64,000 nt of DNA from Candidatus Aldehydirespirator sp. (GCA_965205155.1 OZ242033.1:84688-148687), one strand, 5' to 3'; shown: positions 2,108-40,438, counted from the stretch's first letter. The notes: a model not told the origin generated them from the letters alone. Numbers and translations: made by a program.

Positions 2108-3154
2108 CTAGGCCTGCAACTCCTCGCGCACGATGGCTGCACCGCGGACCAGGGCCGAGAGCTTGGCCAGGGCGAGCTCTCTCGACATGTACTTCATCCC
2201 GCAGTCGGGGGCCACGACCAGGCGATCGGGGCTCACATGCTTCAGCGCGTCGCGGATCCGGTCCGCCACCACCTCCGGGGTCTCCGCTTCGTGATCGCCG
2301 TTGTCGATGACGCCGAGGATGATGGTCTTGTCGGGGAGCCTGCGGAGGATGTCCAGGTCGATCTTGGGCTGGGCCGCCTCTATGGAGATCTGGTCGACGA
2401 GGCTGCCGTTCAGCTCGGGCAGGAACGAGTACGCGTCCGGCTTGCCGATGCCCCTCCACTCGTGGATGGCCGCGTACCCGAAGCACATGTGCAGCGCAGT
2501 CGTGCCGTCCACCCCGTCGAGAGCCTCGTTGAGCACGTCCACGGCGTACTGGGAGGCCTTCTCGTGCTTGGCCTGCATGTACGGCTCGTCGAGCTGCACG
2601 ACGTCGGCGCCCGCCGCGAACAGGTCCTTGATCTCGGCGTTGACCGCCTGGGCGTAGTCCGACGCGGCCGCCCGCTCGTCGCCGTAGTAGTCGTCCTGGG
2701 CCTGCTGGGTCATGGTGAACGGCCCGGGCAGCGTGATCTTGATCTGGCGGGTGCTGTTGGCCCGCAGCAGCTCCACGTCGCGCACCTCGATCGGCGCGTC
2801 CCGGGTGATCCTGCCGACGATGCGGGGCACCGGATTGGGCTTGCCGGTCCGGTCCATGGCCGTGCCGTGCCGTTCGGTGTCGATGCCCCCCAGCGCGGTC
2901 GCCATCCGGTTGGAGTAGCTCTCGCGGCGGATCTCGCCGTCGGTGATGATGTCGAGGCCCACTTGCTCCATGTCGTGGATGGCCAGGAGGGTGGCATCGT
3001 CCTGGGCCTGCTCGAGGAACTCGGGAGCGACCCGCCAGATCTCCTTGGCTCTGACCCTCGGCGGCAGGCGAGTCCCAAGGTTGGAGCGGTCGATCAGCCA
3101 GTCGGGCTGGGGATAGCTCCCCACCACCGACGTGGGCAGCAGTTTCCCGGTCAT
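2108..3154 (-). CDS. Cobalamin-independent methionine synthase II family protein (C-terminal-domain-only MetE-like)
   Basis: TSVVGSYP, ITDGEIRRES, Zn ligands LHMCFG, ISIE and PDCG. Start assumed at ATG 3154 (ORF extends to 3190). Confidence 0.8.
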   Translation of the reverse strand: MTGKLLPTSVVGSYPQPDWLIDRSNLGTRLPPRVRAKEIWRVAPEFLEQAQDDATLLAIHDMEQVGLDIITDGEIRRESYSNRMATALGGIDTERHGTAMDRTGKPNPVPRIVGRITRDAPIEVRDVELLRANSTRQIKITLPGPFTMTQQAQDDYYGDERAAASDYAQAVNAEIKDLFAAGADVVQLDEPYMQAKHEKASQYAVDVLNEALDGVDGTTALHMCFGYAAIHEWRGIGKPDAYSFLPELNGSLVDQISIEAAQPKIDLDILRRLPDKTIILGVIDNGDHEAETPEVVADRIRDALKHVSPDRLVVAPDCGMKYMSRELALAKLSALVRGAAIVREELQA

Positions 3155-3176
3155 GGTCCGCACCTTCCGCTTGGAT

Positions 3177-3827
3177 TCACTTGCCGGCACCGTCGCGCAG
3201 GTGCCTCAGGACCAGGTTCTTGCCCGCCCTGATGTGCTCCCCCATCAGGTCGGCGGCCCGCTTGCCGTCGCCGGCCGACAGGGCTTCCATGATGGCGGCG
3301 TGGTCGCGCCGTGACTGCGGCAGCCGGCCCGGCACCACCCAGGTGGCCGAGCGGGGGTCGTTCCACAGCCTCCGGATGAAGTCCATGAGATGGGGGATGT
3401 TCTGGGCCGCGGCGTAGATGGTCATGTGCCAGGCCTCGTTGAGGTGCATGGCATCGGCATGGTCGTTGCGGTCGATGGCGGCCCGGTTGGCCTCAGCCAG
3501 CCGCTCGAGCTCGGCAATGTCGACCGCCGTCAGGTGGTCGGCCGCGATCAGCGTGGCCATGGTCTCCAGCAGCTCCCGCAGGTCGTAGAGGTCGGCGGTC
3601 TCCTCGGGGGAGAAGTCGGCGACCCGCACCCCCCGGTGGGGCTCGTTGACGACGAACCCTTCGGCCTGGAGCTGGCGCAGAGCCTCCCGGATGGGGGTGG
3701 CGCTCATCTGGAGCACGTCCCCGAGCGCGTCGATGTCGATGCGCTCCCGGGGCTTCATCACCCCGGCACGGATGTCGTCGCGCAACTTGGCCGCAGCCAG
3801 CTCGGACTTGGTCCGGTATGCCTCCAT
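3177..3827 (-). CDS. GntR family (FCD) transcriptional regulator
   Basis: wHTH MSATPIREALRQLQAEGFV...PHRGVRV plus FCD-type C-terminus. Start at ATG 3827. Confidence 0.85.
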   Translation of the reverse strand: MEAYRTKSELAAAKLRDDIRAGVMKPRERIDIDALGDVLQMSATPIREALRQLQAEGFVVNEPHRGVRVADFSPEETADLYDLRELLETMATLIAADHLTAVDIAELERLAEANRAAIDRNDHADAMHLNEAWHMTIYAAAQNIPHLMDFIRRLWNDPRSATWVVPGRLPQSRRDHAAIMEALSAGDGKRAADLMGEHIRAGKNLVLRHLRDGAGK

Positions 3828-3835
3828 CGCGGCGG

Positions 3836-4690
3836 CTACACCCGGGGTGTGTACTCGTCGCCGGCCAGCACAGCCCTGACGAAGTCGCGGAACTGGATCG
3901 TCTCCATGGTGTTCTCGGTGCGGTTGCAGTCCCAGACGTCGATCCACACGTACTCGATGGAGAAGTAGGCGTCATAGCCCTGGGCCATGAGCCGCTCGAG
4001 GACGCCCCGGTAGTCGATGGTGTTCTCCTGGAAGTTCACCTGCATCCGGCCGGGGGCCGCGCCCCGGCATTGGAAGTGGGCGGCGTGCTCCAGCAGGGGA
4101 TGGACGTCCGACTCGGGAATGTCCTGGTAGACGAAATGGCAGTAGTCGATGGTGAGCTTCAGGCCGGGCACCGCGTCCACCAGCTCCAGCGCCATCTCGG
4201 GGGTCGGCGTGTTGCTGTTGACGCTGGCCTCCACCCGGACCTCGATGTCGTGGGCGGCCGCGGCCTCCACCCTGCGGGTCAACTCGGCCGCGGACAGCCG
4301 CATGGAGTCCGCCGTCGACTGCCCCTCGATCGGGATCCCGCCGTTCATGGTCATGCCGGGCGCGCCGATGCGCCGGGCGAACTCGAGGAAGGCCTCGTAG
4401 CCGCCGTCGCGCTGGGCACGGTCGGGATGGTTGGCGGCCAGGTCGGTCAGATTGAACGACGGCACGAAGAACACGTCGGCTGCTTCCAGCCCGGCGGTGG
4501 CGAGCCGCTCGCCGATGACGCCCGACCATCCGGCCACGTCCTGGCGCACCATCCCGGGCTGGACTTGGGTGCGACCCTCCATCAGGCCCAGATCGATGCC
4601 GTCGAACCCGAGCATCGCGATGTGGCGGACCACGTCGGTGTGGGTCATCAGCGGCCAGGTGAAGTCGGCGCACCCCAGTTTCATGGTCAC
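3836..4690 (-). CDS. Sugar phosphate isomerase/epimerase (xylose-isomerase-like TIM barrel)
   Basis: Metal-ligand pattern RVEA, IDYCH, HFQ, SIEY; paralog of 18980-19849. Confidence 0.8.
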   Translation of the reverse strand: MTMKLGCADFTWPLMTHTDVVRHIAMLGFDGIDLGLMEGRTQVQPGMVRQDVAGWSGVIGERLATAGLEAADVFFVPSFNLTDLAANHPDRAQRDGGYEAFLEFARRIGAPGMTMNGGIPIEGQSTADSMRLSAAELTRRVEAAAAHDIEVRVEASVNSNTPTPEMALELVDAVPGLKLTIDYCHFVYQDIPESDVHPLLEHAAHFQCRGAAPGRMQVNFQENTIDYRGVLERLMAQGYDAYFSIEYVWIDVWDCNRTENTMETIQFRDFVRAVLAGDEYTPRV

Positions 4691-4738
4691 GGCTCCGTCC
4701 TTGCTTCGTGGCGTCTATGGTGCCGCGGGGAGGTCCGC

Positions 4739-5031
4739 ATGCAACGAGTATGTCTCACATTTCGGCTCGTGTCCGGTCGTGAGGACGAGTACCGGCGTCG
4801 CCACGCGACGGTATGGCCCGAGTTGGAGGAGGCCATCAGGGCCGAGGGCTTCACCAGCAGCGTCGTGTACGTCGCGGCGGACACGGTCGTGGTGCTGGTC
4901 GAGCATCCGTCCGACGTCGACGGTGCTCTGGAGCGCCTGGGCACCACCGACGTGAATGCCCGCTGGTCGGAGTACTTCGCCGATGTGATGGCCACCGAGC
5001 CGGTCCAGGCCGAGGAGGTGTGGCGCCTGAG

Positions 5032-5035
<4 letters not shown>
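4739..5035 (+). CDS. L-rhamnose mutarotase-like protein
   Basis: EDEYRRRHATVWPELEEAI motif typical of the RhaM/YiiL family; NARWSEYF; GGGAGG RBS before ATG 4739. Confidence 0.75.
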
Positions 5036-7706
<2,671 letters not shown>

Positions 7707-7710
<4 letters not shown>

Positions 7711-9074
7711 CCGTCCAGGAGCCGGGCAGCCAGGACGCCTTCGGGGTCCAGCGCCCGCTTGATGGACTGGTGGAGGCGGCCCTCGGGCGACCCGGTGTAG
7801 CGGGCGCTGCGGATCGCCCCGATGCCGTGGTGGTGGCCGATAGTGCCGCCGTGGGCGGCGGCCAGGTCGAGCACACGGGCCCACACGGCCTCGCCGGCGG
7901 CGCAGGCGGAGTCGTCGTCGGAGCCGTCGATCCAGAACGCGAGGTACAGGCCGGTGCCGGTGGGGTAGATGTGCGACGAGTGCATCCAGAGCCGATCGGC
8001 CAAGTTCCCTACGTCGGCTTGGAGCGCGGAGGCCAGCGAGGCGGCCGACCGCCACGGCACGCCCACCTCGATGGTGTCGAAGAACGATCCGGCATCCCGG
8101 TTGAGGTCCCGGATCAGCTCCGGCCCGGCATGGCGGTTGTCCCACCAGCGGTCGGCGGCGGCGGAGGAGAGGACGGCCACGCCGGCCGCGCCGATCACAC
8201 CGGCCGCGGCCCGGTGGGCGACGTCGGTGACGTCCGGCTCGCCCACGAGCGACAGCACCAGCAGGCATGCGCCGGCAGGGTCGTGGGCGTCGTCCAGGAT
8301 GGCGGCGGTCTCGGCCGGGTTGAGCAGGCGGGCCACGCCGACGGGCAGCGCCCGCTGGATGAGCTCCCGCTGGACCTCCAGGCCGGTGGCGAAGTCGGGT
8401 ACCAGGCCGTTGAGCCGGATCTCGGGCATGAGCCGGGCTACTGCCATCGAGACAGCCGTGACCACGGCCAGGCTGCCCTCGGCACCGCAGAGCAGTTGCA
8501 GGGCGTCGAGGCCTCCGGGCGAGCGGGGCCGCACCGGAATCCTGAACGCGTCGCCGCTGGGAAGCACCCCCTCGAGGCCGCGCACCATCTGCTCCACCCC
8601 GCCGAACCTCGCCGAGGCCGTGCCGGTGGCCCTGGTCGCGATCCAGCCGCCGACGGTCGAGTGTTCCAGGGACTGCGGGTCGTGCCCGAGGGTGAACCCC
8701 CGGTCGTTCAGGTAGCCCTCGAGGACCCCTCCGAGAACCCCGGCCTCGGCGGTGACCACCTGCGAGGCCGCGTCGAGGTCGACGATGCGGTCCATGGCGA
8801 GACGCAGCACCACGTCAGGGGTGCCGTCGAGACAGCCCACGACGTTGGTGCGGGCGCCCTCGACCTGCACGGTCGCGCCGGCGGCCGCCGCGGCACGGAG
8901 CACCGAGCCGACGGTCTCCGCCGACTTGGCCGAGACGACTGCGGCGGGATCGGGGCGAACCGGGCGGCACTTCAGGCCCATCGGCCAGGTGTCGGCCGGG
9001 TTGTTGCGGTCGGGCCCTTCGATCTCTCCGGCCGGCACCCCCGCCCGGATCAGCGCCTCGACCGTGACACTCAC
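7707..9074 (-). CDS. FAD-binding oxidoreductase (VAO/PCMH family; GlcD/alkylglycerone-phosphate synthase-like)
   Basis: HDPQSLEHSTVGGWIATRATG, GAEGSLAVVT and C-terminal GHHHGIG...ALDP. Confidence 0.85.
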
Positions 9075-9140
9075 CTGGTAGTCCTCCCCCGTCTTGCCGG
9101 CCGCCCGGGCCGGACGCCACAGCCTACGTCGCGACGGCCC

Positions 9141-9190
9141 CAGGCTTGAGAGGCGCGATCGGCCGCAGGCTTGAGAGGCGCGATCGGCCG
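9141..9190. repeat. 25-bp perfect tandem duplication in a divergent intergenic region
   Basis: caggcttgagaggcgcgatcggccg at 9141-9165 and 9166-9190. Confidence 0.95.
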
Positions 9191-9276
9191 CTTTGTGGCA
9201 CGATCACCCAACCGGCACCTGCGATCCCAGGTCCGGGACGCCACTGCGCAGGGCCGAGAACTCGGAGGGTGACATC

Positions 9277-10356
9277 GTGAAGCTGCGGCTGGGAGTGATC
9301 GGAGCAGGTGCCTGGACGGTGGCATCCCACTTGCCCAACCTCCGACGTCGAGCGGACGAGATCGACTTCGTGGCAGTCAACAGTCTCGACCCGGAGCGCC
9401 TGGAGTCGATCCGGGAGCGATATGGATTCCAGGTCGCCTCCACCGACTACCGCGAGGCGCTGGCGGCCGGTGTCGACATCTGTGTGGTCGCCAGTCCCGC
9501 CCGCTGGCATCATGAGCATGCACGGGCCGCTCTGGACGCCGGCGCCCACGTTCTCGTGGAGAAGCCGTTCACGATAGATCCGGCCCACGCCTGGGACCTG
9601 GCGAACACTGCGGAACGGCTGGGCCTTCACTTGCTGGTGTCGTTCGGCGCCAACTACCAGCCGATGATTCGCGGAGCCAAGCAACTGATGACGACCGGCG
9701 GCGGGATCGGCGAGGTCGAGCACGTCATGATCCATATGGCCTCGGCGATCCGTGAGGCCTTCCTGGGCCACCCCCGCCCGTACGCGCTCGACGAGCTTCC
9801 CGCAGGAGCGCCCGAACTGCACCCCGATCCCGACACGTCGGCGACACCGGAACTCGCCGGCGGCGGCTACGCCCAGGCGCAGCTGTCCCATGCGATCGGT
9901 CTGGCTCTCTGGCTGACCGGCCTTCGCGGCCGCGAGGTCTATGGCGTGACATGGCGCCCATCGGCGGACGTGCCGGTGGAGTTCCATGACGCCGCGGTCA
10001 TCGTGTTCGAGAACGGAGCCATCGGCACGGTGTCCGGCGGCTCCTGCCACATGGGAGCAGGCAACGACAAGCACCAGCAGGAGGTCCGGTTGATCGGCTC
10101 GGAGGGACAGCTCCACGTGGACGTGGAGCGAGAGATCGTGTGGCGCTATCGAGGCCCCGACAGTGACATCCGGCTGCCCGTCGAGACGGGTGACGGGCTG
10201 TACAACTGCCGCGGCCCGATCGACGCTCTCGTCGATCTTGCCGCCGGCCGGGATGTGCCCAACGAGTCGCCGGGCGAACTCGGCGCGCGGGTCGTCGAGA
10301 TCATCGATGGCCTGTACAGGAGCGCGAGATCACACACTCCCGTGGCGGTGCCGTAG
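9277..10356 (+). CDS. Gfo/Idh/MocA family oxidoreductase
   Basis: GVIGAG Rossmann motif and HVLVEKP; GGAGG RBS before GTG 9277; paralog of 31525-32628. Confidence 0.88.
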   Translation: MKLRLGVIGAGAWTVASHLPNLRRRADEIDFVAVNSLDPERLESIRERYGFQVASTDYREALAAGVDICVVASPARWHHEHARAALDAGAHVLVEKPFTIDPAHAWDLANTAERLGLHLLVSFGANYQPMIRGAKQLMTTGGGIGEVEHVMIHMASAIREAFLGHPRPYALDELPAGAPELHPDPDTSATPELAGGGYAQAQLSHAIGLALWLTGLRGREVYGVTWRPSADVPVEFHDAAVIVFENGAIGTVSGGSCHMGAGNDKHQQEVRLIGSEGQLHVDVEREIVWRYRGPDSDIRLPVETGDGLYNCRGPIDALVDLAAGRDVPNESPGELGARVVEIIDGLYRSARSHTPVAVP

Positions 10357-10368
10357 AGCCTCGAGCCG

Positions 10369-11154
10369 TCAACCAGTTGCTCTCCGCTCGAGGGAGAGGA
10401 TGTATGAGGACGTGCTGCCGCCGTCCGCCATGATTACAGCCCCGGTCAAGAAGGATGACTCGTCGCTGGCAAGGTGCAGGATCGTGTGGGCGATCTCGCC
10501 GGGCTCGGCCCACCGGTTGAACAGGTTCATGTTGTGGTACTCCTTCATGGCGTCTTCGGAGACGCCCGCCATCATCGGGGTGTCCACCAGCCCGGGACAG
10601 ATCACGTTCACCCGGATTCCATCGGAGGCATGGTCCGCGGCCATGCACCGCGCCAACCCGATGACCCCGTGCTTTGAAGCGTTGTAGGCTGCCTGCCCCA
10701 TCTGCCCGGTGACGCCCGAGACCGAGGAGACACAGACGATCTTGCCGTGCTGCTGGCGCACCATTGCCGGCAGGACATACTTCGAGCACAGGAACATCCC
10801 CTTGAGGTTGACATCGAGGATTGAATCCCACTGCTGCTCGGACAGATCGAGAACGCTGCCCATTCCCCGTACGCCCGCGTTGTTCACAAGGATGTCGATC
10901 CGCCCGTAACGCTCGAGCGCAGAGGCGGCCAGGCTCTTGGCGCTCTCGGCCTTGGTCACATCGGTCGTCGCCGCCACTGCCTCGCCGTCCTGCGACCTGA
11001 TCAATTCGACCGTCCCGGCGGCGCCGTCCGGGTCCTTGTCGGCCACGACCACCTTGGCACCCTCGGCCGCGAAGAGCGCTGCGGTTGCCCGACCCAACCC
11101 GCTGCCGGCCCCCGTGATGATCGCCACCCTCTCATCCAGGCGTTTCAATGGCAT
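10369..11154 (-). CDS. SDR family NAD(P)-dependent oxidoreductase
   Basis: TGAGSGLG, NNAG, YNASK and VNVICPG. Confidence 0.93.
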   Translation of the reverse strand: MPLKRLDERVAIITGAGSGLGRATAALFAAEGAKVVVADKDPDGAAGTVELIRSQDGEAVAATTDVTKAESAKSLAASALERYGRIDILVNNAGVRGMGSVLDLSEQQWDSILDVNLKGMFLCSKYVLPAMVRQQHGKIVCVSSVSGVTGQMGQAAYNASKHGVIGLARCMAADHASDGIRVNVICPGLVDTPMMAGVSEDAMKEYHNMNLFNRWAEPGEIAHTILHLASDESSFLTGAVIMADGGSTSSYILSLERRATG

Positions 11155-11225
11155 TGGACCTCACCCCCCGCAGGTCACGGACCGTCGGACGCTCAACTGA
11201 TTGCCCTGCGGATGCGGCATGTCAG

Positions 11226-30134: not shown

Positions 30135-30235
30135 TTGTCCCCCTCGGGTCCCCTGGTGAGGGTTCCCCTCTCGGCCCGCCCTGGAGCGGACAATATTTTC
30201 TATAGGCCGCAATAGTAGACCACTTCTGCGGCCCG

Positions 30236-31456: not shown

Positions 31457-31524
31457 GGGAGCACGGCCGCAGTCGCAGGGACCATCGGCAGGACTCTACA
31501 TTTTATAAAATCGCTTTGGCGAAG

Positions 31525-32628
31525 CTAGCCGACAGCTTCCACCCGGCCGCTGGCCGCGCTGCGGTAGGCCGCCTCGACGATCTCCACCGTCCGAGCCCCG
31601 AGTTCGCCGGGTGAGTGGTTGGCCACGCCGTCGCCCCGGGCCAGGGCGACCAGGGTGTCGATCGGACCGCTGCAGTCGTACAGCCCGGCGCCGGGCTCGA
31701 GTTCCAGCACGACCTCCTGGTCGGGACCCCGGAACCGGGACACCAGCTCCCGGCACAGATCCACGTGGAGCTGGCCCTCCGACCCGATGATCTGCACCTC
31801 GAGATGGTGCTTGTTGCCGTTGTGTCCCAGGTGGGAGGAGGCCCCCGAGACGCTGCCGATGGCACCGGCGTCGAACCGGACCGACCAGGCGTCGTGGTAC
31901 TCCACGGGAGTGTCCAGCGGCGACGACATCATGGCGAAGACCTCGGCGCCGCGCAGCCCCGACAGCCACAGCCCCAGCCCGATGGCGTGGGATAGCTGGG
32001 CCTGGGCGTAACCCCCGCCCGAGATGCCCGGATCGACGAGGGTCTCGGGCCGGGGCGTCAGCTCGGGCACGACCTTCGCGCTGACGAAGCCCCCTTCGTC
32101 CTGGTCGGACGCGAACGACGGCTGCACGCCTTGGAGGGCCTCGCGGGTGGTGGACGACATCACGATCGAGATGCTCTCGACCGTGCCGACGCCGCCGCCG
32201 GTCTCCATGAGCCGCTTGGCCCCGATGACGATGTCCTTGTAGTGCCAGCCCAGCGCGATGAGCAGGTGACGGTCGTTGGCGGCCGCGGTGGCCACCAGGT
32301 CCCGGGCCTCGTCGGGGTGGACGGTGAACGGCTTCTCCACCAGCACATGGGCGCCGGCCTCGAGGGCGGCCTTGGCGTGCTCGTGATGCCAGCGGACCGG
32401 GCTGGCCACCACCACGATGTCCGGCTCGGCCTCCAGCACGCCCCGGTAGTCGGTGTGGGCCGAGGCGAACCCGAACCGGGACCTCACCGTCTCGAGCAGG
32501 ACGGGGTCGCGGCGGTTGACCGCGGTGAACTCCACCGCGTCGCGGTGCTTCTCCAGGCGGGGCAGGTGCGACGCCACGCACCAGGCTCCAGCACCGATCA
32601 TCCCCAGCCTGAGCTTGCTCATCCTCAT
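31525..32628 (-). CDS. Gfo/Idh/MocA family oxidoreductase
   Basis: GMIGAG and HVLVEKP; shares GGGYAQAQLSHAIGL with the gene at 9277. Confidence 0.88.
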   Translation of the reverse strand: MRMSKLRLGMIGAGAWCVASHLPRLEKHRDAVEFTAVNRRDPVLLETVRSRFGFASAHTDYRGVLEAEPDIVVVASPVRWHHEHAKAALEAGAHVLVEKPFTVHPDEARDLVATAAANDRHLLIALGWHYKDIVIGAKRLMETGGGVGTVESISIVMSSTTREALQGVQPSFASDQDEGGFVSAKVVPELTPRPETLVDPGISGGGYAQAQLSHAIGLGLWLSGLRGAEVFAMMSSPLDTPVEYHDAWSVRFDAGAIGSVSGASSHLGHNGNKHHLEVQIIGSEGQLHVDLCRELVSRFRGPDQEVVLELEPGAGLYDCSGPIDTLVALARGDGVANHSPGELGARTVEIVEAAYRSAASGRVEAVG

Positions 32629-34217
32629 CCTGCGCTTCCGGTTGCCTCTGCGCTTGCGGGCGCGTCCGGTTGGGCCTGTCGGGCGGCGGGCCGCGCCGCG
32701 GCCATTGTCTCATAGAGGCGCCGGTAGAGCACCAGCTTGGCCCGGTACCCGCCGGCCCGGGCCTCGTCGGGCTCGAACCGGGCCGCCATGGGCATGGTCA
32801 CCGCCCTGTCGACGGCCTCGATGGCGGAGCCCGCGATCAGGGCCGCTCCCACTGCGGCTGCATAGGAACTGGCCGACGACTCGACCGGGACCCCGAGAAC
32901 GTCGGCGAAGATCTGCATCCACGGAGCCGACCGGGACCCGCCGCCGGCGGCCCGCAGCGCAGCGACCGGTTCGACCGCCTCTGAGAGCCGCTCGGCCATC
33001 ACGGCCGTCTCCAGGGCGACCCCCTCGAGCAGGGCCCTGACCAGTTGGCGGCGGTCGGTGTCGAACGTCAGACCGGCCATGACGGCCAGGGAATCCGGGT
33101 CGGAGAACCCGGCCCTGGACCCGGCGAAGTGGGGAACGACGATCGCGGTGGTCTCGACGGCGGCCGCGGCCGACACGATGGTGTCGTAGAAGTCGGCGCC
33201 CGCGGCCTCAGCCCGCTCGGCGTCGGCCCTGCCCAGCACGTCGCGGTACCAGCGCAGGACCGCTCCGCCGGCCGGTGCCCCCGCCACGGTGAGCGACCGG
33301 CCCTCGACGACGTGGGGGCCGGTGGGCACCGCTAGCGGCCGGGGCCGGCCCCCGGCCAGCACTACGGCCAGCACCGCCACCGTTCCCAGCGACAGCAGGG
33401 CCTCGCCGGTCCCTACGGCGCCTACCGCGTGGGCGGCGCAGGCCTGGTCCAGCCCGCCCGCCACCAGCGTGGCGCCGGGGGCGAGTCCGAGATCGGCGCA
33501 ATGCCGGCGGGGGATCGTGCCGATGACGGTTCCCGACGGCGCCGTTGCCGGCAGCTTGGCCTCGTCGATGCCGGCGGCTTGGAGGATGCCGGGGTCCCAG
33601 CTCCGGCCGGCCTGGTCGAAGGCGAGGGTCCTGGTCGCCATGGTGTGGTCCATGACCGGTTCGAGGCCGAGCCGGGCCGCCACCAGGTCGCCGTAGCACA
33701 CCAGCTTGGCCGCGGCCCGGTAGGTGCCGGGTGCCTCGCGGGCGAGCCAGCTCCATTTGGCCGCGGAGTAGTGGGGCATGGGCGCCAGGCCGGTGATCCT
33801 CTCGAAGCTGTCGCGGCCGATCTGCTCGACGAGGCGGTCGTGGCAGGCGGCGGCGCGGCGGTCGAACGACACGATCGAGGGCCCCAGCGGTCGACCGCGG
33901 CCGTCGATGGGCGTCACCGCCTCGCCCAGGCAGGACACGGCCATGGCCCGGGGCGGTCCGACGCCGGCCGAGGTCGTGACACCGATGGCCGAGGTCGTGT
34001 CACCTCCGGCCGAGGTCGTGACACCGATGGCCGAGGTCGTCTCACGGATGGCCGAGCACGCCGCCTCCCACACCACGTCGGGATCGAGCTCGGCCCAGCC
34101 CGGCCGGGGGGTGATCAACGGGTACTCGCGGTAGGCGCAGGCGACCGGGGCACCGTCGGTGGAGACGACGGCCGCCTTGCAGCCGGTGGTGCCGATGTCA
34201 ACGCCGAGCAGCGTCAT
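32625..34217 (-). CDS. FGGY family carbohydrate kinase
   Basis: VDIGTTGCK, SFDRR, GGLDQ, SLGT, GGGSRS. Confidence 0.9.
   Translation of the reverse strand: MTLLGVDIGTTGCKAAVVSTDGAPVACAYREYPLITPRPGWAELDPDVVWEAACSAIRETTSAIGVTTSAGGDTTSAIGVTTSAGVGPPRAMAVSCLGEAVTPIDGRGRPLGPSIVSFDRRAAACHDRLVEQIGRDSFERITGLAPMPHYSAAKWSWLAREAPGTYRAAAKLVCYGDLVAARLGLEPVMDHTMATRTLAFDQAGRSWDPGILQAAGIDEAKLPATAPSGTVIGTIPRRHCADLGLAPGATLVAGGLDQACAAHAVGAVGTGEALLSLGTVAVLAVVLAGGRPRPLAVPTGPHVVEGRSLTVAGAPAGGAVLRWYRDVLGRADAERAEAAGADFYDTIVSAAAAVETTAIVVPHFAGSRAGFSDPDSLAVMAGLTFDTDRRQLVRALLEGVALETAVMAERLSEAVEPVAALRAAGGGSRSAPWMQIFADVLGVPVESSASSYAAAVGAALIAGSAIEAVDRAVTMPMAARFEPDEARAGGYRAKLVLYRRLYETMAAARPAARQAQPDAPASAEATGSAG
33966..34040 (-). 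repeat. 21-bp in-frame repeat x4 (TTSAIGV/TTSAGGD) inside the FGGY kinase
   Basis: ggccgaggtcgt core at 33966, 33987, 34008 and 34029. Confidence 0.9.
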
Positions 34218-34250
34218 GGGGTGTGAGCGACGCCGGGCCGCGTCACCGGG

Positions 34251-34889
34251 TCAGGCCACGACCATCTTGGCGTCGACATACTCCAGCGTCTGGGGCTCGC
34301 CCACCTGGAGGGCCAGCAGCATCACCTCAGCGTTGAACTCGATGCCGATGGAGCGTTCGGCAGCCTGCTCGACGGTGTCGGCCACCACCAGCAGGCCGTG
34401 GTTCTGCCATACGACGCCATGGCGGTCGCCCATGATCTCGAGCATCTCCCGGGCGAACTCCGCGCCCCGGGTCTTGCGGAACGGCATGATCGGCACGGTG
34501 CCGTTGGCCGACTTCAGGCCGGTGGTCGTCACCGGCAGTATGTCTCGGCCCAATGCGCCGAAGGCGTTGATGTAGGGGGGCTCGGTGTGGAGCACCGAGA
34601 AGACGTCGGGACGCTCCGCGTAGACGGTGAGATGCACCTCGGCGTCGTAGGAGGGGTCGAGGCGACCGGCCATCTTGTGCCCGTCGGCGTGCAGGATCAC
34701 CAGGTCGTCGGCCGTCATGTCCTCGTACGGGTAGGCGTGGGGGGTGATGACGATGTGGCCGGTCTGGCGGTCTCGGGCGCTGAAGTTCCCCTGGTAGGCG
34801 GGCACCATCGGAGTGTCCGAGAGGCGCCTCATGGTGACGGCCAGGCTGTCCATCAGGTCCGCGGAGACCAGTCCGTTGTCTGTGCTCAT
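34251..34889 (-). CDS. Class II aldolase/adducin family protein
   Basis: QGNFSAR, ITP, PSYDAEVH, VLHTEP, WQNHG. Confidence 0.82.
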   Translation of the reverse strand: MSTDNGLVSADLMDSLAVTMRRLSDTPMVPAYQGNFSARDRQTGHIVITPHAYPYEDMTADDLVILHADGHKMAGRLDPSYDAEVHLTVYAERPDVFSVLHTEPPYINAFGALGRDILPVTTTGLKSANGTVPIMPFRKTRGAEFAREMLEIMGDRHGVVWQNHGLLVVADTVEQAAERSIGIEFNAEVMLLALQVGEPQTLEYVDAKMVVA

Positions 34890-34997
34890 CCCATCTCCTG
34901 ACGTTCGGTGGGCCCGGCGGGCGGCTGGAAACAAGCTACAACATCGCTCAGGCCCGGTTCTCCAGCGGCCCGGGGCCGGCCCCTTTGCCTCCGGCGT

Positions 34998-35016
34998 GAT
35001 GTATGAGGTATACATC
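34998..35016. promoter_or_regulatory. Palindromic operator candidate GATGTAT-N5-ATACATC
   Basis: Perfect 7-bp inverted repeat in a divergent intergenic region; second copy at 39734-39752. Confidence 0.7.
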
Positions 35017-35077: not shown

Positions 35078-35690
35078 ATGCGCAGAGTGGACGCCGAAGT
35101 AGTCGACGCCTACCTCGACCCTGATCGCTGCTGCAACCAGGGCAGCATCGTGAAGCTCCAGAACGGCGACCTGCTGCTGGGCTACAACGAGGAGCGGGGC
35201 CCGATGCACGCCGACACCGGCCGGTCGTGCCTGATCAAGTCGTCCGATGGGGGCAGGAGCTGGGATCCGAGCACCCGGGTGGTGGTGGAGGACTACACCG
35301 AGCACACCGGCAACTGGGACTGCGCCTTCGCCCAGATCAGCGACGGCACCATCATCATGCACACCCGCATCTGCGGCTTCATCAACGCCCCCGGAGCCAT
35401 CGCCAACCGCATCGACGAGCAGGCGATGGGCTACGTCCAGGCCCACCAGACCGGCTATGCGGTCTACAAGTCCACCGACGACGGCGACACGTGGAACGGC
35501 CCGATCCCGGTGAGCACCTACCCGATCGCGGACTCGGGCACGGCGGGATGCCTGGCCGGCGGAACCGGATCGGGCCATGTGGTGGAGCTTCCCGACGGGG
35601 GGCTGCACGATCGTGACCGCCTACCACGAGTACACCAAGGACGAGTGGCCCATCCAGTACATGCAGACGGCCCGCTTCCGGCTCGACTGA
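35078..35690 (+). pseudogene. BNR/Asp-box (sialidase-like) beta-propeller protein, internally deleted and frameshifted
   Basis: Asp-boxes SSDGGRSW and STDDGDTW. After ELPDGG at a G6 run (35597-35602) a plausible C-terminus CTIVTAYHEY...FRLD* continues in another frame. Confidence 0.7.
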
Positions 35691-35770
35691 GGTTCTCGCC
35701 CTGTCCTCATCGTCGGAACGGCGCGTGAGCGCGAAACGGGTTGTGAGCGCCCGCGGTGCGGCGTTGCGTT

Positions 35771-35819
35771 TCCCGCTCTTGTTCGCTTCGCTCACGGGCC
35801 GCTCGGGCCACGGCCTCGC
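35771..35819. repeat. Dispersed 49-bp intergenic element, copy 2
   Basis: Matches 20858-20906 with 2 mismatches. Confidence 0.85.
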
Positions 35820-35829
35820 TTGACGCCCC

Positions 35830-36828
35830 GTGAAGTCACGTCGTGATCTGCACCGGTCCGCTCGGCCTCTGGGGCTGCTCGTCGCCGTGGACGCCTTCGG
35901 CGACGGCCACATCCAGGCCCTGTGCGAGGCCGCCGGGGATCGGGCGGTCTGTGACCGGCTCGGCCAGGACGCCCCCGCCGGCGAGTACCGGCGGGCGATG
36001 GCCGTAGCCGAGGTCATGGTCGGCTGGCCCGACCCCGATGTGCTGGCGGCTAGTGCGCTCGAGTTGCTGCTGCTGCCCAGCGCGGGCTACGAGGAGTACC
36101 TGACCCCGGAGTTGGCCGCCAGGGAGGGGCTGGTGGTGTGCAACGCGGGTGGGGCCTACTCCGAGGGGGTGGCCGAGCACTGCGTGGCCATGATGCTGGC
36201 GCTGGTACGCCGCCTGCCCGAATACATCACGGCCATGCCCCGGCGCGGCTGGGACCATCGGCACCTGCACGACCGGTTGTCGGGCTCGACCGCGTGCGTG
36301 ATCGGGCTGGGGACCCTGGGGTCGGCCATTGCCCGGCGGTGCGCGGCGCTGGGCATGCGGGTGGTGGGCGTGCGCCGGCATCCGGACCGGCCCAGCCCGA
36401 ACGTGTCGGAGGTGTTCGGGCCTGAGGCGCTCGCCGCCGCGGTGGCCGGAGCCGACCATGTGGTGGGGGCACTGCCGGGCGGGGCGGCCACCAGAGGGCT
36501 GATCAGCCGGGAGGTGATCGCGGCCATGAAGCCGGGCGCCTATTTCTGCAACGTCGGCCGGGGGCTGTCGGTCGACGAGGAGGCCCTGGTGGAGCGGCTG
36601 GCCGGCGGGAGCCTGGCCGGGGCGGGTCTCGACGTGTTCGCCACCGAGCCGCTGCCGGATGACAGCCCGCTGTGGAGCATGGAGAATGTGATCGTGACCC
36701 CGCACGTGGCCGGCTACACCTGGGACTACCCCGACGAGCTGTGCAAGGTGTTCGCGGTCAACCTGGCCGCCTACGCGGCCGGCGAGCCGCCGCCCAACGT
36801 CATCGACCTGTCGGGGGCGGGATCCTGA
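35830..36828 (+). CDS. D-2-hydroxyacid dehydrogenase
   Basis: GLGTLG, NVGRG, LDVFATEPL and TPHVAG. Confidence 0.9.
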   Translation: MKSRRDLHRSARPLGLLVAVDAFGDGHIQALCEAAGDRAVCDRLGQDAPAGEYRRAMAVAEVMVGWPDPDVLAASALELLLLPSAGYEEYLTPELAAREGLVVCNAGGAYSEGVAEHCVAMMLALVRRLPEYITAMPRRGWDHRHLHDRLSGSTACVIGLGTLGSAIARRCAALGMRVVGVRRHPDRPSPNVSEVFGPEALAAAVAGADHVVGALPGGAATRGLISREVIAAMKPGAYFCNVGRGLSVDEEALVERLAGGSLAGAGLDVFATEPLPDDSPLWSMENVIVTPHVAGYTWDYPDELCKVFAVNLAAYAAGEPPPNVIDLSGAGS

Positions 36829-36898
36829 GGGCGGCGGCGTGAGGGCGGCGGCGTGAGGGCGGTGCCGTGAAGGCGGGATCGTGAGGGGCGTGTCGTGA
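36827..36898 (+). repeat. Five degenerate 14-bp tandem units between the dehydrogenase and MR/MLE genes
   Basis: gagggcggcggcgt x2, gagggcggtgccgt, gaaggcgggatcgt, gaggggcgtgtcgt. Confidence 0.85.
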
Positions 36899-38019
36899 GG
36901 ATCACGGGGATGGTGACCCGGGTGCTGGCGCTGGACGCGCAGCCCTGGTACGGCGACAGCCCCATCCCCGACGACGTGCCCCCCGTCTGGCACTTCCCGC
37001 TCACCTGCGTCTCCACCGATGAGGGCATAGACGGCTACACGATGGGCTACGGCGCCAACGGCGAGGGGATCGGCTCGGCCCACCAGCTCCACGACGTCTA
37101 CCTGCGGGCGATCCTGGGCCGCGACCCGCGGCGCCACGAGGAACTGTGGCACGAGCTCATGAGCCTCAACCGCCACCTGTACCCCATCAGCGACGGCCTG
37201 CTGGGCATGCTCGACGTGGCCTTCTGGGACATCAAGGGCAAGGCCGCCGGCGTGCCCATCGCCGAGCTGTTGGGGATGGTCCGCACCGAGGTTCCCGCCT
37301 ACCGGACCGGTTCGCACTGGAACCTGACCCCCGCCGACACCTTCGCCGAGGCGGCGGCCATGAAGCAGCAGGGCTACCGGGGCTACAAGCTGACCCTGTA
37401 CGACGGCCCGGCCGCCGACATCCCCCGGGCCGAGGCCGCCCGGGAGGCGGTGGGCGACGACTTCCCGCTGATGCTGGACGCGGTGGCCGAGTACAGCTTC
37501 GACCAGGCTCTGGAGGTGGGCGAGGCGCTGGGCCGTCTCGGTTACCGATGGTTCGAGGAGCCCGTCCCGGACCGCGACATCGCCGCGCTGGAGCAGCTGA
37601 CCCGCCGGCTGGAGGTGCCCATCCTGGCCACCGAGACCGTCAGCCTGGGGGAACTGCACCAGTTCCTGGAGCGCCGGGCTATCGACATGGCTCGGGGCGA
37701 CGTGTTCATCAAGGCGGGCATCACCGGCCTGCGCAAGGCGTCGGCCATGTGCGACGAGGCCGGCATGAACCTGGAGATCCACGCCCTGCACTCGTCGCTG
37801 CTCGACATCGCCAACCTGCACGTGGCCTGCTCGGTGAGCAACTGCGAGTTCTTCGAGCTGCACCACCCGATGTTCCGCTTCGCCCTCAAGGGCGCCCCCC
37901 TCGACATCGACGCCAACGGCTGCTTGCACCTGCCCCCCGGACCAGGCCTCGGGGTGGAGCTCGACTGGGACTGGATCGACAACAACACAGTCGTCGAACT
38001 CTCAGGGCTCAAGGTCTAA
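36895..38019 (+). CDS. Mandelate racemase/muconate lactonizing enzyme family (enolase superfamily) protein
   Basis: DVAFWDIKGK, GYKLT, metal ligands MLDA/FEEP/ATE, EIH, HLPPGPGLG. Confidence 0.88.
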   Translation: MRITGMVTRVLALDAQPWYGDSPIPDDVPPVWHFPLTCVSTDEGIDGYTMGYGANGEGIGSAHQLHDVYLRAILGRDPRRHEELWHELMSLNRHLYPISDGLLGMLDVAFWDIKGKAAGVPIAELLGMVRTEVPAYRTGSHWNLTPADTFAEAAAMKQQGYRGYKLTLYDGPAADIPRAEAAREAVGDDFPLMLDAVAEYSFDQALEVGEALGRLGYRWFEEPVPDRDIAALEQLTRRLEVPILATETVSLGELHQFLERRAIDMARGDVFIKAGITGLRKASAMCDEAGMNLEIHALHSSLLDIANLHVACSVSNCEFFELHHPMFRFALKGAPLDIDANGCLHLPPGPGLGVELDWDWIDNNTVVELSGLKV

Positions 38020-38025
38020 CGGCTC

Positions 38026-38406
38026 TCAGCGGTCGGGTCGCTCCAGCCACCATACGAACGACTCGACATCGTCGAGAATGGCGCCGCGCACCGCGAGGAA
38101 CGCGGCGAGCGCATCGGCGAGCACGGGCACACTGTTCTGCGCGGAGCGAGGGAACCGGCGGGCATGGCCAAAAATCAGTCCGGAGTGTCGCTGCCTCGCG
38201 GCCAGGATGTGCCGATGAAGCGCCGCGAAGTGCTTCACATTCTCGGTGACAACCGCTCTGCCTTCGGCTGTCGCAACCCGAAGCAGGTCCTCGTCAGGCA
38301 TCCCGATGAGGTCTGATCGCTCCTTGACGGCGACGGCGTCGTGCCCCCAGTCACGCAGCAGGGCCGCGACCGCGGGAGCGTGCATCTCGTCGAGGAGGAG
38401 CTTCAC
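38026..38406 (-). CDS. DUF5615 PIN-like toxin (VapC45-like)
   Basis: MKLLLDEM and RAVVTENVKHF; directly downstream of the antitoxin gene. Confidence 0.8.
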   Translation of the reverse strand: MKLLLDEMHAPAVAALLRDWGHDAVAVKERSDLIGMPDEDLLRVATAEGRAVVTENVKHFAALHRHILAARQRHSGLIFGHARRFPRSAQNSVPVLADALAAFLAVRGAILDDVESFVWWLERPDR

Positions 38407-38825
38407 CCGGTCAGCAGCTTGCGCTCGTTCTCCCAGGCGGCCAACTCGCGGTCGGCGATCTCGTCGTTCTCTGCGATCTCGGCGTCGATCTCGTCGGTGA
38501 ACTCGGCGTAGTACCGGCTGACGGCGCGGACTTGCCTCTCGGTGAGCCAGAGCTGCTCAGCCGTGGCCGCGATCCGCTCCTCGAGGCTTCCCTCGAGACC
38601 CCGAAGCAGCGGGACGACCTCCCAAACGTCGGGCCCGGTGTCCAGCACGGCCCGCCGGCCGGCAGGCCCGTCGCGGAAGACGATTCCGGGATGGGCGTCC
38701 ATGCGCAGGCCCTCGTCGATTAGTCGCTCCCCCGCCGAAGAGATCGATTCGCCCCGCTGGGCCGCGCTCCGCTTGAGCCGCTCGTGGACACCCGGACGCT
38801 TGAACCGGATCGACAGCACAGTCAT
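38403..38825 (-). CDS. Cognate antitoxin (RHH-like N-terminus plus DUF433-like HTH)
   Basis: HPGIVFRDGPAGRRAVL..GPDVWEVV; leaderless ATG 6 nt after a TACAAT -10 element (38832-38837). Confidence 0.7.
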   Translation of the reverse strand: MTVLSIRFKRPGVHERLKRSAAQRGESISSAGERLIDEGLRMDAHPGIVFRDGPAGRRAVLDTGPDVWEVVPLLRGLEGSLEERIAATAEQLWLTERQVRAVSRYYAEFTDEIDAEIAENDEIADRELAAWENERKLLTG

Positions 38826-38990
38826 GGTGACATTGTAGTCAACTGTCACCGCTAAGGTGTCGTGAGGTCCGTAGTCCCGCGGTCCTCGTCGAGAACGTCG
38901 GCGGTGGTTCGCGGCGCGGGGAAGCGCTGAGCCGGCCCCAAACGTGTCCGGGACGCTGGTGTGATCCAGCCTTCCTCGATGCCCCGCTCG

Positions 38991-39038
38991 TCAGCCGTCG
39001 ACATCGTCAGCCGTCGACGCCGTCAGCCGTCGACGTCG
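38991..39038 (-). repeat. 16-bp x3 repeat duplicating the GntR stop codon
   Basis: tcagccgtcgacNNcg at 38991, 39007 and 39023. Confidence 0.9.
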
Positions 39039-39706
39039 TCCACGTCGTCCACCTTGATGAGAATGTGAGAACGGACAGCCTCCTCGCAGGCGTCCGGGTC
39101 GCGGCCCCGCAGCACGTCCAGGAACTCGACGTGGCGGAGCACCCACGACTTGAAGGCCACGTCGTCGAGGGGGTAGAGGTCGAACTCGAACGACCAGATG
39201 AGGTTGGACAGGCCGGCCATCGACCAGGTGCGGAGCAGGGCCTGGTTCCGGGCCGACTCGACCAGCAGCGTGTGCCAGGCGATGTCGAACTCGATACCGG
39301 CGACCGCGTCGAGGCCGTCGGAGGCCCGCCAGGCGTCCTGCAGCATGGCCTCGTACCGGCCGCAGAGCTCGTCCCATTCCTGGGTGGAGAGGCGCTCGAG
39401 GGCCTGGCGCACAGCAAGGACCTCGAGAGCCGCCCTGACGTGGAGCCCGTCCTCGGCCTCGGCCCGGTTCATGCTGGCCACGAAGGTCCCGTTCTTGGGT
39501 CGGATCTCGATGAGACCCTGCTGTTCGAGCAGCTTGAACGCTTCCCGGACGGGGGTGCGGCTCACTCCGAGCTGGTCGGCCAGCTCAGCTTCTGGGATCT
39601 TGTCGCCCGGCCGGAAGCGGCCTTCCACGATCGCGTTGCGGATCGCGTCGATGATCTGCTCGCTCAGGTTCTTTCGCGCTAGCGGCGCTAGTCGGGAAGG
39701 ACCCAC
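39023..39706 (-). CDS. GntR family (FCD) transcriptional regulator
   Basis: LSEQIIDAIRNAIVEG...LGVSRTPVREA...GTFV plus FCD with FDIAWH; start uncertain (GTG 39706). Confidence 0.85.
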   Translation of the reverse strand: MGPSRLAPLARKNLSEQIIDAIRNAIVEGRFRPGDKIPEAELADQLGVSRTPVREAFKLLEQQGLIEIRPKNGTFVASMNRAEAEDGLHVRAALEVLAVRQALERLSTQEWDELCGRYEAMLQDAWRASDGLDAVAGIEFDIAWHTLLVESARNQALLRTWSMAGLSNLIWSFEFDLYPLDDVAFKSWVLRHVEFLDVLRGRDPDACEEAVRSHILIKVDDVDDVDG

Positions 39707-39733
39707 CCGGTGTTGACCCCCCTGCCTCGGTTC

Positions 39734-39752
39734 GATGCATGATATATACATC
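39734..39752. promoter_or_regulatory. Palindromic operator candidate GATGCAT-N5-ATACATC upstream of gntR
   Basis: Near-identical to 34998-35016; lies in the divergent gntR/phyH region. Confidence 0.7.
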
Positions 39753-39811
39753 GCTGAAGGACTGGCCAAGCCGGGTGACGACGCACGGGGGCGGCCGCAC
39801 GGGGGTGGCGC

Positions 39812-40438
39812 ATGGTGCTCCTGCGGGTGGTCGGGCTGCTGCTGGGGGGCGAGGTCTCGGTGATCGCCAGCCCCTCGCTGCGCCAGAAGCTTCCCAGCAG
39901 CGCGGTCACGTCGTTCCCCTGGCACCAGGACAGCCACTACTTCGATCAGACCGAAGTGGGGAGGATGGAGAAGCACACCGAGGACCTGCACATGGTGTCC
40001 GTGTGGGTGCCGCTGGTGCCGGCCACGGTGGAGAACGGGTGCTGCTGGGTGATCCCGGGCAGCCACCGTTGGGGCCTGCTGGATGCGATGCGGGGCGAGG
40101 ACCGCAACGTCCGGATGAGCGAGGACGTCGAGGCCCGGGGCACGCCGGTGCCGGTACCGGTGAAGGTGGGCGGGGCCTTCTTCTTCACCAACCTCACCGT
40201 CCACGCCAGCAAGCAGAACACCACCCCGCACTGCCGCTGGAGCGTCGACTTCCGCTACATGCCCACCCCGTCCAGCCCCGTTCTGGACGACAGAGTGCGT
40301 ATGCAGGCAGAGTTCGTGGCGAACGGCTGCCTCTCCGCCGGTGACGTCCCGTTCGCGGTGCTGCCCGAGGCGGCCCGGCCCACATGGCCGCAGTGGGAGG
40401 CCACCGTCAGCGAGCACCGAGCGAGCATGATGGCGTGA
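39812..40438 (+). CDS. PhyH-family dioxygenase, apparently N-terminally truncated
   Basis: PWHQD, ENGCCWVIPGSH and VHASKQN...RWSVDFRY; lacks the usual N-terminal segment. Confidence 0.7.
   Translation: MVLLRVVGLLLGGEVSVIASPSLRQKLPSSAVTSFPWHQDSHYFDQTEVGRMEKHTEDLHMVSVWVPLVPATVENGCCWVIPGSHRWGLLDAMRGEDRNVRMSEDVEARGTPVPVPVKVGGAFFFTNLTVHASKQNTTPHCRWSVDFRYMPTPSSPVLDDRVRMQAEFVANGCLSAGDVPFAVLPEAARPTWPQWEATVSEHRASMMA

Follow-up and report, generated by a model that had tools for sequence, protein, structure and literature searches.

A patchily distributed island of sugar-type catabolic genes with a linked cytochrome P450 in Candidatus Aldehydirespirator

Positions 2,108 to 40,438 of a 64,000-nucleotide stretch of DNA from Candidatus Aldehydirespirator sp. 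(the window; C1:84688-148687 of a 3.89-Mb genome with ~70% GC) hold a patchily distributed, optional catabolic island together with backbone genes. The island has three layers, a conserved core operon of sugar-type genes, a proposed acid branch, and a cassette with an ABC importer and a cytochrome P450, and with a probability of roughly 0.55 it serves the use of a neutral sugar-like compound, i.e., a sugar, polyol, cyclitol or small glycoside. A genetic link between the P450 and the sugar-type genes is supported by comparison across genomes and contigs. The host genus belongs to the Acidimicrobiales (Actinomycetota) and was sampled from sponge, coral and marine material, and DNA near-identical to the window is present in sponge, coral and marine metagenomes. 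Genes were called by codon usage and third-position GC content (GC3), because spurious open reading frames (ORFs) are abundant at high GC, and were annotated with Pfam and NCBIfam. The genus comparison comprised 39 species genomes (G numbers); the comparison contigs (L numbers) are mostly metagenome fragments, and the wider set includes contigs of metagenome-assembled genomes (MAGs). All gene families listed in a preliminary description of this DNA were found by Pfam scans where it had placed them, and its view of a pathway unlike any described was borne out: apart from the aconitase, which scores as AcnA, no island enzyme reaches an NCBIfam equivalog cut-off. A literature search for this combination of families gave no match, and the view that the enzymes correspond to no characterised pathway is supported by these model scores.

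The extent of the island is given by a close relative without it (G008), in which window position 2063 is joined directly to 34980. The flanks in G008 share 93-96% DNA identity with the window and nothing there matches 2064-34979, so that the island corresponds to window ~2100-34980, i.e., ~33 kb. One Gfo/Idh/MocA oxidoreductase (Gfo_b), a class II aldolase-family protein (Ald1), a xylose-isomerase-like TIM barrel (TIM_a) and the AcnA-type aconitase share one distribution, namely the same five of the 39 genomes; TIM_a is confined within the genus to these island-bearing species, among which Ald1 is 96-98% conserved.

The first layer, the core, consists of the following genes, annotated by Pfam, among them a solute-binding protein (SBP):

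23356-35015, minus strand: conserved core operon, gene order shared with other contigs
34251-35015, minus strand: class II aldolase-family protein, Ald2
32625-34217, minus strand: FGGY kinase, FGGY2
31525-32628, minus strand: Gfo/Idh/MocA oxidoreductase, Gfo_c
30236-31456, minus strand: family III CoA-transferase, a genus-specific extra inside the core operon
29166-30137, minus strand: SBP2, with a lipobox and without a Pro/Glu linker
28001-29026, minus strand: xylose-isomerase-like TIM barrel, TIM_c
26898-28004, minus strand: Gfo/Idh/MocA oxidoreductase, Gfo_b
26270-26887, minus strand: ureidoglycolate-lyase-like (UGL) cupin
25443-26171, minus strand: ABC system 2 ATPase
24366-25364 and 23356-24369, minus strand: ABC system 2 permeases

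The same arrangement, with 54-79% identity, was found on L081, L102, L103, L106-L109, L112 and L115-L117, where it runs from a class II aldolase via an FGGY kinase, a Gfo enzyme, an SBP, a TIM barrel, a second Gfo enzyme, the UGL cupin and the ATPase to two permeases, usually with an aldehyde dehydrogenase. Its minimal recurrent unit, TIM_c-Gfo_b-UGL, was found on L104, L105 and L118, and Gfo_b orthologues of 55-79% identity lie on many metagenome and MAG contigs. As the core recurs on many metagenome contigs without belonging to a known pathway, its substrate would probably be a common one in the sea and elsewhere. Modelled with AlphaFold (pLDDT 83), TIM_c comes nearest in structure to SCO6571 and to AtHYD, the 2-hydroxy-3-keto-glucal hydratase of Agrobacterium, and PDB sequence searches found nothing closer than these two. 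With regard to the ligand of the SBPs, the matches among solved structures were weak and limited to ribose-binding proteins and one apo structure of the Enzyme Function Initiative. Two known routes were compared with the island genes and are not supported by them. An L-rhamnose/L-fucose phosphorylative pathway is not supported by the rhamnulokinase (35-43 vs. 528 bits), fuculokinase (104-109 vs. 471) and FucA (48-58 vs. 400) models, all of which score below their cut-offs, as does the RhaM model (see below). For a myo-inositol (iol) pathway, the IolG equivalog TIGR04380 scored 67.7 against a cut-off of 355, and Pfam scans found in the island no thiamine pyrophosphate enzyme that would correspond to the ring-cleaving hydrolase IolD.

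The second layer is a citrate synthase/PrpF/AcnA set, which accompanies the core more consistently than any other partner. It lies within the same coordinates and had not been named in the preliminary description, and the same applies to the family III CoA-transferase, the UGL cupin, a MetE-C-like protein, a short-chain dehydrogenase/reductase (SDR) and two GntR/FCD regulators. The set consists of:

22170-23300, minus strand: citrate-synthase-like enzyme (CS) with the motif LHGGAVDDAM (Pfam/NCBIfam)
20949-22157, minus strand: PrpF/Mii-type isomerase (Pfam/NCBIfam)
5032-7710, minus strand: AcnA-type aconitase (TIGR01341, 1152 bits vs. a cut-off of 945)

The acid branch is co-located with the core: six other contigs have CS-PrpF directly after the core, on five of which (L102, L106, L108, L109, L117) an AcnA orthologue comes after CS-PrpF, and the sixth, L116, ends within PrpF. 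In the CS of all of these clusters (window 22599-22640; L102, L106, L108, L109, L116, L117) LHGGA(V/I)DD(A/S)M replaces the canonical LHGGANE, and by this motif the enzyme looks like a distinct subfamily. Elsewhere the genome encodes an ordinary GltA-type CS (motif GPLHGGANE) and, at 2.11 Mb, a further aconitase; together with the presence of AcnA in 5 of 39 genomes this led us to reject the role of a housekeeping aconitase of the tricarboxylic acid cycle. Equivalogs of the AcnD/PrpF 2-methylcitrate cycle were rejected as well, since the models for AcnD (TIGR02333, 759 vs. 1420), PrpC (TIGR01800, 402 vs. 421) and PrpF (TIGR02334, 285 vs. 440) score below their cut-offs and the aconitase scores as AcnA; the PrpF protein is equally close to methylaconitate and 3-methylitaconate isomerases. 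An MmsA-type, i.e., CoA-acylating, aldehyde dehydrogenase as source of propionyl-CoA was discarded because the cluster aldehyde dehydrogenase on other contigs is non-acylating and BADH-like. The non-phosphorylated product of the pathway would be a short acid that is handled as acyl-CoA by a methylcitrate-like route. The sugar-operon-linked CS variant, PrpF and AcnA constitute an unexplained metabolic link in itself.

The third layer is an add-on cassette (Pfam annotations), to which the separately located TIM_b gene is tied by its loss:

9069-16631: add-on cassette of 7.6 kb, absent from G002 and G011
9277-10356, plus strand: Gfo/Idh/MocA oxidoreductase, Gfo_a
10369-11154, minus strand: SDR
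11226-12491, minus strand: cytochrome P450 (PF00067, 92.5 bits)
13526-14518 and 12537-13604, minus strand: ABC system 1 permeases
14515-15327, minus strand: ABC system 1 ATPase
15449-16570, plus strand: lipoprotein SBP1
18980-19849, plus strand: TIM_b, a ketose(-phosphate) 3-epimerase-like TIM barrel, lost with the cassette

The P450 is present in three of the five island-bearing species. The genomes G002 and G011 lack exactly 9069-16631 and, separately, 18972-19876 with TIM_b, and they keep the FGGY1 kinase, Ald1, the dioxygenase PhyH1 and the rest of the island; a copy of a REP-like element stands exactly at the cassette scar in both (L091, L094). The GC3 of the cassette genes is 0.79-0.84 (0.82) compared to 0.90-0.98 (0.93) for other genes (Mann-Whitney p = 6e-7), which points to a separate origin of the cassette. 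Genomes without the island, with the island but without the cassette, and with both form a natural series that offers ready controls for the substrate and for the roles of the layers. For TIM_b, the AlphaFold 2 model (pLDDT 96) has UlaE as best PDB match (TM 0.77-0.80, 21% identity); UlaE is also its closest match by sequence, and TIM_b resembles L-xylulose-5-phosphate and ketose 3-epimerases. TIM_b homologues adjoin P450s on L103 and L111. The N-terminus of SBP1 (15449-15690) carries a lipoprotein signal (LIAAAC) followed by a long repetitive Pro/Glu linker of APEPEPEPE units.

These losses bear on the module structure of the region, which had been described as two parallel modules. The paralogue pairs on which this was based hold, with 58% identity over 283 aa for TIM_a/TIM_b (3836/18980) and 58% over 357 aa for Gfo_a/Gfo_c (9277/31525), in both cases full length. 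ABC systems 1 and 2 are related as well (ATPases 59%, permeases 47-48%, SBPs 35-44%). The kinases FGGY1 and FGGY2 share just 30% identity, and Ald1 and Ald2 gave no BLAST match to each other. Two equivalent modules are contradicted by the persistence of FGGY1 and Ald1 where ABC system 1 and the P450 are absent. The former module 1 is not one unit, because FGGY1 and Ald1 go with the island core, and ABC system 1, the P450, the SDR and Gfo_a are an add-on.

The P450 gene follows the last permease of ABC system 1 after 45 bp on the same strand, in line with the co-orientation originally noted, and it was gained or lost together with this system across the island-bearing species. It has the motifs of the P450 superfamily, a heme-thiolate Cys loop (FxxGxHxCxG) as FGHGVHLCLG at residue 360 and ExxR as EFLR at 296, and AGHAST in the I-helix. 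Within the genus (two Ca. Aldehydirespirator sp. MAGs) the protein is 92-93% identical, the Cys loop and AGHAST are kept, and synonymous codon changes are ~2x the non-synonymous ones. The CYP236 type that had been assumed is rejected by the ranking of PDB sequences: the best 60 of 299 matches are CYP107-like, such as BioI, PikC, EryF and the vitamin D hydroxylase Vdh, and the CYP236A2 entries 6G5O/6G5Q are absent among these best 60. A tree built with 16 paralogues of this genome and 77 further relatives places the eight cluster-linked P450s without exception in a single 10-row clade (SH-aLRT 91), a degree of clustering that 0 of 500 label shuffles attained.

A conserved co-occurrence in other genomes had been named as one of the points on which the proposal would stand or fall, and for the P450 it was found: clade-mate P450s lie beside core orthologues in three other contexts. 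On L103/L133, a co-directional run comprises the core, an aldehyde dehydrogenase, the P450, a TIM_b homologue that overlaps the P450 by 4 bp, a ferredoxin reductase (FdR), a ferredoxin (Fdx), an Amidohydro_2 protein and a small Rieske protein. On L110/L111, the P450 L110_a (53% identity) is the reciprocal best match to the window P450 and is accompanied by a second P450, with a RhaM homologue stronger than that of the window between the two, and by Gfo_b (74%), UGL, a Rieske protein, TIM_b (65%) and URO-D/MtaA-like genes. On L123, a Gfo_b-like gene and the gene of an FGGY1-like kinase have a P450 on either side. Related contigs encode L-fuconolactonase-like Amidohydro_2 and LRA6-like hydrolases, and MetE/URO-D-like and MTHFR-like genes lie near some versions of the cluster. 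Together with the RhaM-like neighbours these would fit a chemistry of deoxy- or methyl-sugars and the handling of one-carbon units; they are only hints, as none passes its family cut-off. As a side observation, pairs of an Amidohydro_2 gene and a gene for a small Rieske protein (130-134 aa) stand beside P450-bearing clusters (L103/L133 11174-11578 and 14020-15495; L111 8349-8741), twice on one contig.

According to the reading that we favour, a CUT2 ABC importer would take up the substrate, and the two Gfo/Idh/MocA oxidoreductases, the TIM barrel nearest to 3-keto-glucal hydratase and the cupin would convert it via keto intermediates. The FGGY kinase would phosphorylate the product and the class II aldolase-family enzyme would cleave or epimerise it. 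The non-phosphorylated fragment would be directed to acyl-CoA disposal by the CS variant, the PrpF/Mii isomerase and AcnA in a methylcitrate-like manner, and the family III CoA-transferase and an FAD-linked 2-hydroxyacid oxidase would be additions of this genus to the acid branch. The cassette would enable the island to use the substrate in a derivatised form as well: with electrons from an FdR/Fdx pair encoded elsewhere, the P450 would hydroxylate the imported compound, most plausibly in an O-dealkylation or O-demethylation, and the SDR, Gfo_a and TIM_b would convert the P450 product to a core intermediate. O-dealkylation of a derivatised substrate is the most likely role of the P450; O-demethylation specifically is possible but doubtful. 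Oxidative deprotection of a modified sugar, such as an O-methyl or deoxy sugar, would be a plausible step. The more far-reaching proposal, according to which a CYP107-like clade with Fdx and FdR oxidatively deprotects methylated sugars or cyclitols by O-demethylation or O-dealkylation in sponge Acidimicrobiia and other bacteria, with the product feeding the orphan pathway and a non-sugar product leaving via the variant CS, PrpF and AcnA, is put forward tentatively.

Several observations weigh against these assignments. The window P450 has AGHAST in its I-helix and thereby no acid-alcohol pair, whereas all clade-mates have AGHETT, and the closest characterised P450s act on lipophilic substrates. 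The window encodes no Fdx/FdR, the nearest ferredoxin reductase/ferredoxin pair being located at C1:2254007-2255338, and no formaldehyde-handling gene; Pfam scans found no glycoside hydrolases in the island. The support of the P450 clade is moderate (SH-aLRT 91), the clade holds two long-branch outsiders, and the L103 P450 is not a reciprocal best match of the window P450. In the acid branch, the aldehyde dehydrogenase that elsewhere lies between core and CS is missing from this island, and the window has no PrpB-type lyase (2-methylisocitrate lyase); two genes of the phosphoenolpyruvate mutase family are located elsewhere in the genome. Since the comparison contigs are mostly metagenome fragments, their independence is judged by sequence divergence only, and because no island enzyme apart from the aconitase reaches an equivalog cut-off, each chemical step is inferred, as is the substrate.

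A different reading of the core starts from TIM_c. The core might cleave a small glycoside or anhydro-sugar in the cytoplasm by oxidation, elimination and hydration (3-keto-glycoside chemistry), in which one Gfo enzyme would oxidise C3, TIM barrels would eliminate and hydrate and the second Gfo enzyme would reduce, and the P450, SDR, aldehyde dehydrogenase and CS/PrpF/aconitase would handle the aglycone. AtHYD is indeed the nearest characterised structure to TIM_c, two Gfo enzymes together with two or three TIM barrels are also what makes up the AL/BT and Gram-positive clusters (bioRxiv 10.1101/2024.03.25.586180), the TIM_c-Gfo_b-UGL unit of L104 lies beside a GH63-like hydrolase and a CUT1 transporter, and the relatives of the P450 favour non-sugar substrates. 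We nevertheless consider this unlikely: the similarity of TIM_c to AtHYD amounts to just TM 0.67-0.69 and 20-21% identity, the model for levoglucosan dehydrogenase yields 51 (cut-off 650), there is no DUF1080 partner, and the ever-present FGGY kinase and class II aldolase would not be needed. The latter two enzymes would find a place in an ordinary pentitol, tetritol or ketose route, in which Gfo enzymes oxidise a polyol to a ketose, FGGY phosphorylates it, and TIM_b as UlaE-like 3-epimerase and the class II aldolase-family protein as UlaF/AraD-like 4-epimerase lead to the pentose-phosphate pathway, with no deprotection and a side role for the P450. This route agrees with UlaE as best match of TIM_b by both sequence and structure, with the L-ribulose-5-phosphate 4-epimerase subfamily as best NCBIfam model for Ald2 and with XylB as best model for both kinases; however, the scores are far below the cut-offs (110 vs. 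251 for Ald2; 235 vs. 380 for XylB), and no explanation would be given for the conserved aldehyde dehydrogenase, CS/PrpF/aconitase, the UGL cupin or the repeated presence of a P450 with FdR and Fdx inside the operon, which makes it quite unlikely.

The P450 and PhyH genes might also be chance neighbours, the region being a collection of several independent operons in a variable part of the chromosome. The genome has ~18 P450 paralogues, a promoter-like TATAGT upstream of the P450 might serve it separately, the cluster link of PhyH1 is confined to the genus and PhyH2 lies outside the island. On the other hand, the gain and loss of the P450 with ABC system 1 extends to the loss of TIM_b, and among the three other contexts in which P450 clade-mates adjoin core orthologues one has overlapping reading frames. 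Owing to this co-loss and recurrent association, chance adjacency is unlikely for the P450 and possible for PhyH; as an account of both it is very unlikely.

Compared to described systems, the island of the favoured reading shares single traits with several. In marine Bacteroidota, the CYP236A system of P450, ferredoxin and ferredoxin reductase acts on 6-O-methyl-D-galactose (PMC6292453; PDB 6G5O/6G5Q). Similar to it, the P450 studied here lies in a carbohydrate-utilisation locus of a marine bacterium, and the relative L103 has FdR and Fdx in the operon; in contrast, the lineage is CYP107-like with AGHAST, the context is an ABC/kinase/aldolase one in Actinomycetota, local redox partners are absent, and there is no polysaccharide-utilisation locus for agar or porphyran. 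The PrpC-AcnD-PrpF 2-methylcitrate cycle likewise has a CS homologue, a PrpF-family isomerase and an aconitase encoded together as accessory genes, but the aconitase here is AcnA-type, the CS motif is a variant, PrpB is not nearby and the trio is joined to a sugar-type operon. The AL/BT, levoglucosan Lgd and AtHYD clusters share the paired Gfo/Idh/MocA enzymes and "sugar phosphate isomerase" TIM barrels, with TIM_c nearest to AtHYD; the likeness is at superfamily level only, and the present system differs in its cytoplasmic location and its association with an ABC importer, FGGY kinase, class II aldolase and cupin. Loci for L-rhamnose in rhizobia and actinobacteria reportedly encode the CUT2 importer RhaSTPQ, the mutarotase RhaU/M, the TIM-barrel isomerase RhaI, the FGGY kinase RhaK/B and a class II aldolase. 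The island resembles them in its CUT2 ABC, RhaM-like, PF01261, FGGY and PF00596 proteins, and related contigs add the aldehyde dehydrogenase and the L-fuconolactonase-like and LRA6-like proteins; it differs by equivalog scores below the cut-offs and by two or three Gfo enzymes, the UGL cupin and CS/PrpF/aconitase, which have no counterpart there. In Sinorhizobium, the moc genes for the rhizopine 3-O-methyl-scyllo-inosamine include an oxygenase with ferredoxin partners, which removes the O-methyl group before inositol-type catabolism. In concept only, and judged from its description, this system has a comparable CUT2-type SBP, Gfo/Idh/MocA dehydrogenase, TIM barrel and O-methyl-removing oxygenase; the oxygenase there is MocDEF-type and not a P450. 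To our knowledge, CYP236 is the only P450 family known in sugar catabolism. If the proposal is true, carbohydrate-active P450 chemistry would have arisen a second time in this clade, independently of CYP236, and as the clade is tied to a different pathway it would widen the known bacterial ways of unmasking modified sugars.

The remaining island genes, located mainly in its left part, are:

2108-3190, minus strand: MetE-C-like (Meth_synt_2-only) protein (PF01717, 115 bits), at the left end of the island
3177-3947, minus strand: GntR/FCD regulator GntR1 (Pfam GntR and FCD), likely start 3827
3836-4690, minus strand: xylose-isomerase-like TIM barrel TIM_a (PF01261), paralogue of TIM_b
4739-5035, plus strand: RhaM-like small protein, a distant family member (PF05336, TIGR02625)
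7707-9074, minus strand: FAD-linked (GlcD-like) oxidase FADox (PF01565 and PF02913), overlapping AcnA by 4 bp
16620-18125, minus strand: FGGY kinase FGGY1 (Pfam)
18295-18969, plus strand: class II aldolase-family protein Ald1 (PF00596)
19887-20798, minus strand: Fe(II)/2-oxoglutarate dioxygenase PhyH1 (PF05721, 136.7 bits), last gene of the long operon

The MetE-C-like gene is the last of a TIM_a-GntR1-MetEC operon and scores 252 against a cut-off of 392 with the NCBIfam methionine-synthase models; the XylB model gives 235 against 380 for FGGY1. The RhaM-like ORF exists as described, and its assignment as a mutarotase is weak, with PF05336 at ~21.2 against 23.4 bits and the TIGR02625 equivalog at 47 against 99.6. 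On L121, a FADox homologue (51%) adjoins Ald1-like (56%) and Gfo_b-like (45%) genes in a cluster with an SDR, a transaldolase, a cupin, a TIM barrel and an MTHFR-like gene, which suggests a more distant cluster type for a related but distinct pathway. In the cassette-less G011 (L090/L091), the AcnA orthologue is split in two and an in-frame TAG is present in TIM_a, which may reflect incipient decay of the island or an error of long-read assembly.

A coupling of PhyH dioxygenases to the pathway had also been proposed. PhyH1 and PhyH2 both score above the PF05721 cut-off and have WHQD and a downstream His, i.e., the HxD...H facial triad, so that both look catalytically intact by sequence. In each of the five island-bearing species PhyH1 is the last gene of the long operon; outside the genus no orthologues were found, only more distant homologues in unrelated contexts (L126 is a genus member), and PhyH2 belongs to the backbone. 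The presence of both proteins thus stands, and the coupling is weak. A TIM_b homologue lies beside three PhyH genes in one unrelated organism.

To the right of the island, the following backbone features were annotated:

35078-40438: backbone genes outside the island, i.e., BNR-like, 2-hydroxyacid dehydrogenase, MR/MLE, PIN-like pair, GntR2 and PhyH2
34998-35016, plus strand: GntR-type palindrome GATGTATGAGGTATACATC (GATGYAT-N5-ATACATC) in the promoter of the BNR-like operon, backbone
35830-36828, plus strand: 2-hydroxyacid dehydrogenase (Pfam)
36895-38019, plus strand: MR/MLE protein (Pfam)
39812-40438, plus strand: PhyH2, Fe(II)/2-oxoglutarate dioxygenase (PF05721, 90 bits)
GntR/FCD regulators, two between 2,108 and 40,438 (Pfam): GntR1 in the island, GntR2 in the backbone

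The genes of 35078-40438 are 86-98% identical in G008 and G030, both of which lack the island. The 2-hydroxyacid dehydrogenase, MR/MLE and PhyH2 genes, formerly counted among the pathway members, are removed from it, as they lie outside the island and are present in island-less relatives. The exact palindrome GATGYAT-N5-ATACATC occurs in two copies only, at 34998 and 39734-39752, and the former is kept at the junction in G008. This weakens a GntR2 regulon as a candidate link between PhyH2 and the long operon: as its first copy is part of the backbone and persists in G008, the palindrome does not tie PhyH2 to the island operon. The two minus-strand genes at 38026-38849, one for a PIN-like DUF5615 protein (38026-38406) and one for a 148-aa protein without a Pfam match, probably form a backbone toxin-antitoxin pair. 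Downstream of the region (45111-47499), a DUF1214 protein and a sulfotransferase-family protein are encoded in one operon, and a distant PhyH1 homologue on L127 also adjoins a DUF1214 gene. A REP/MITE-like element of ~50-90 bp recurs in intergenic DNA (20858-20944, 35768-35819). The hexamer CTATAG has 60 copies in the 3.89-Mb genome (~1 per 64 kb); the three in the window are all intergenic and in the island, upstream of the P450 (12528), between FGGY1 and Ald1 (18207) and upstream of SBP2 (30200), and may represent a shared promoter or operator element.

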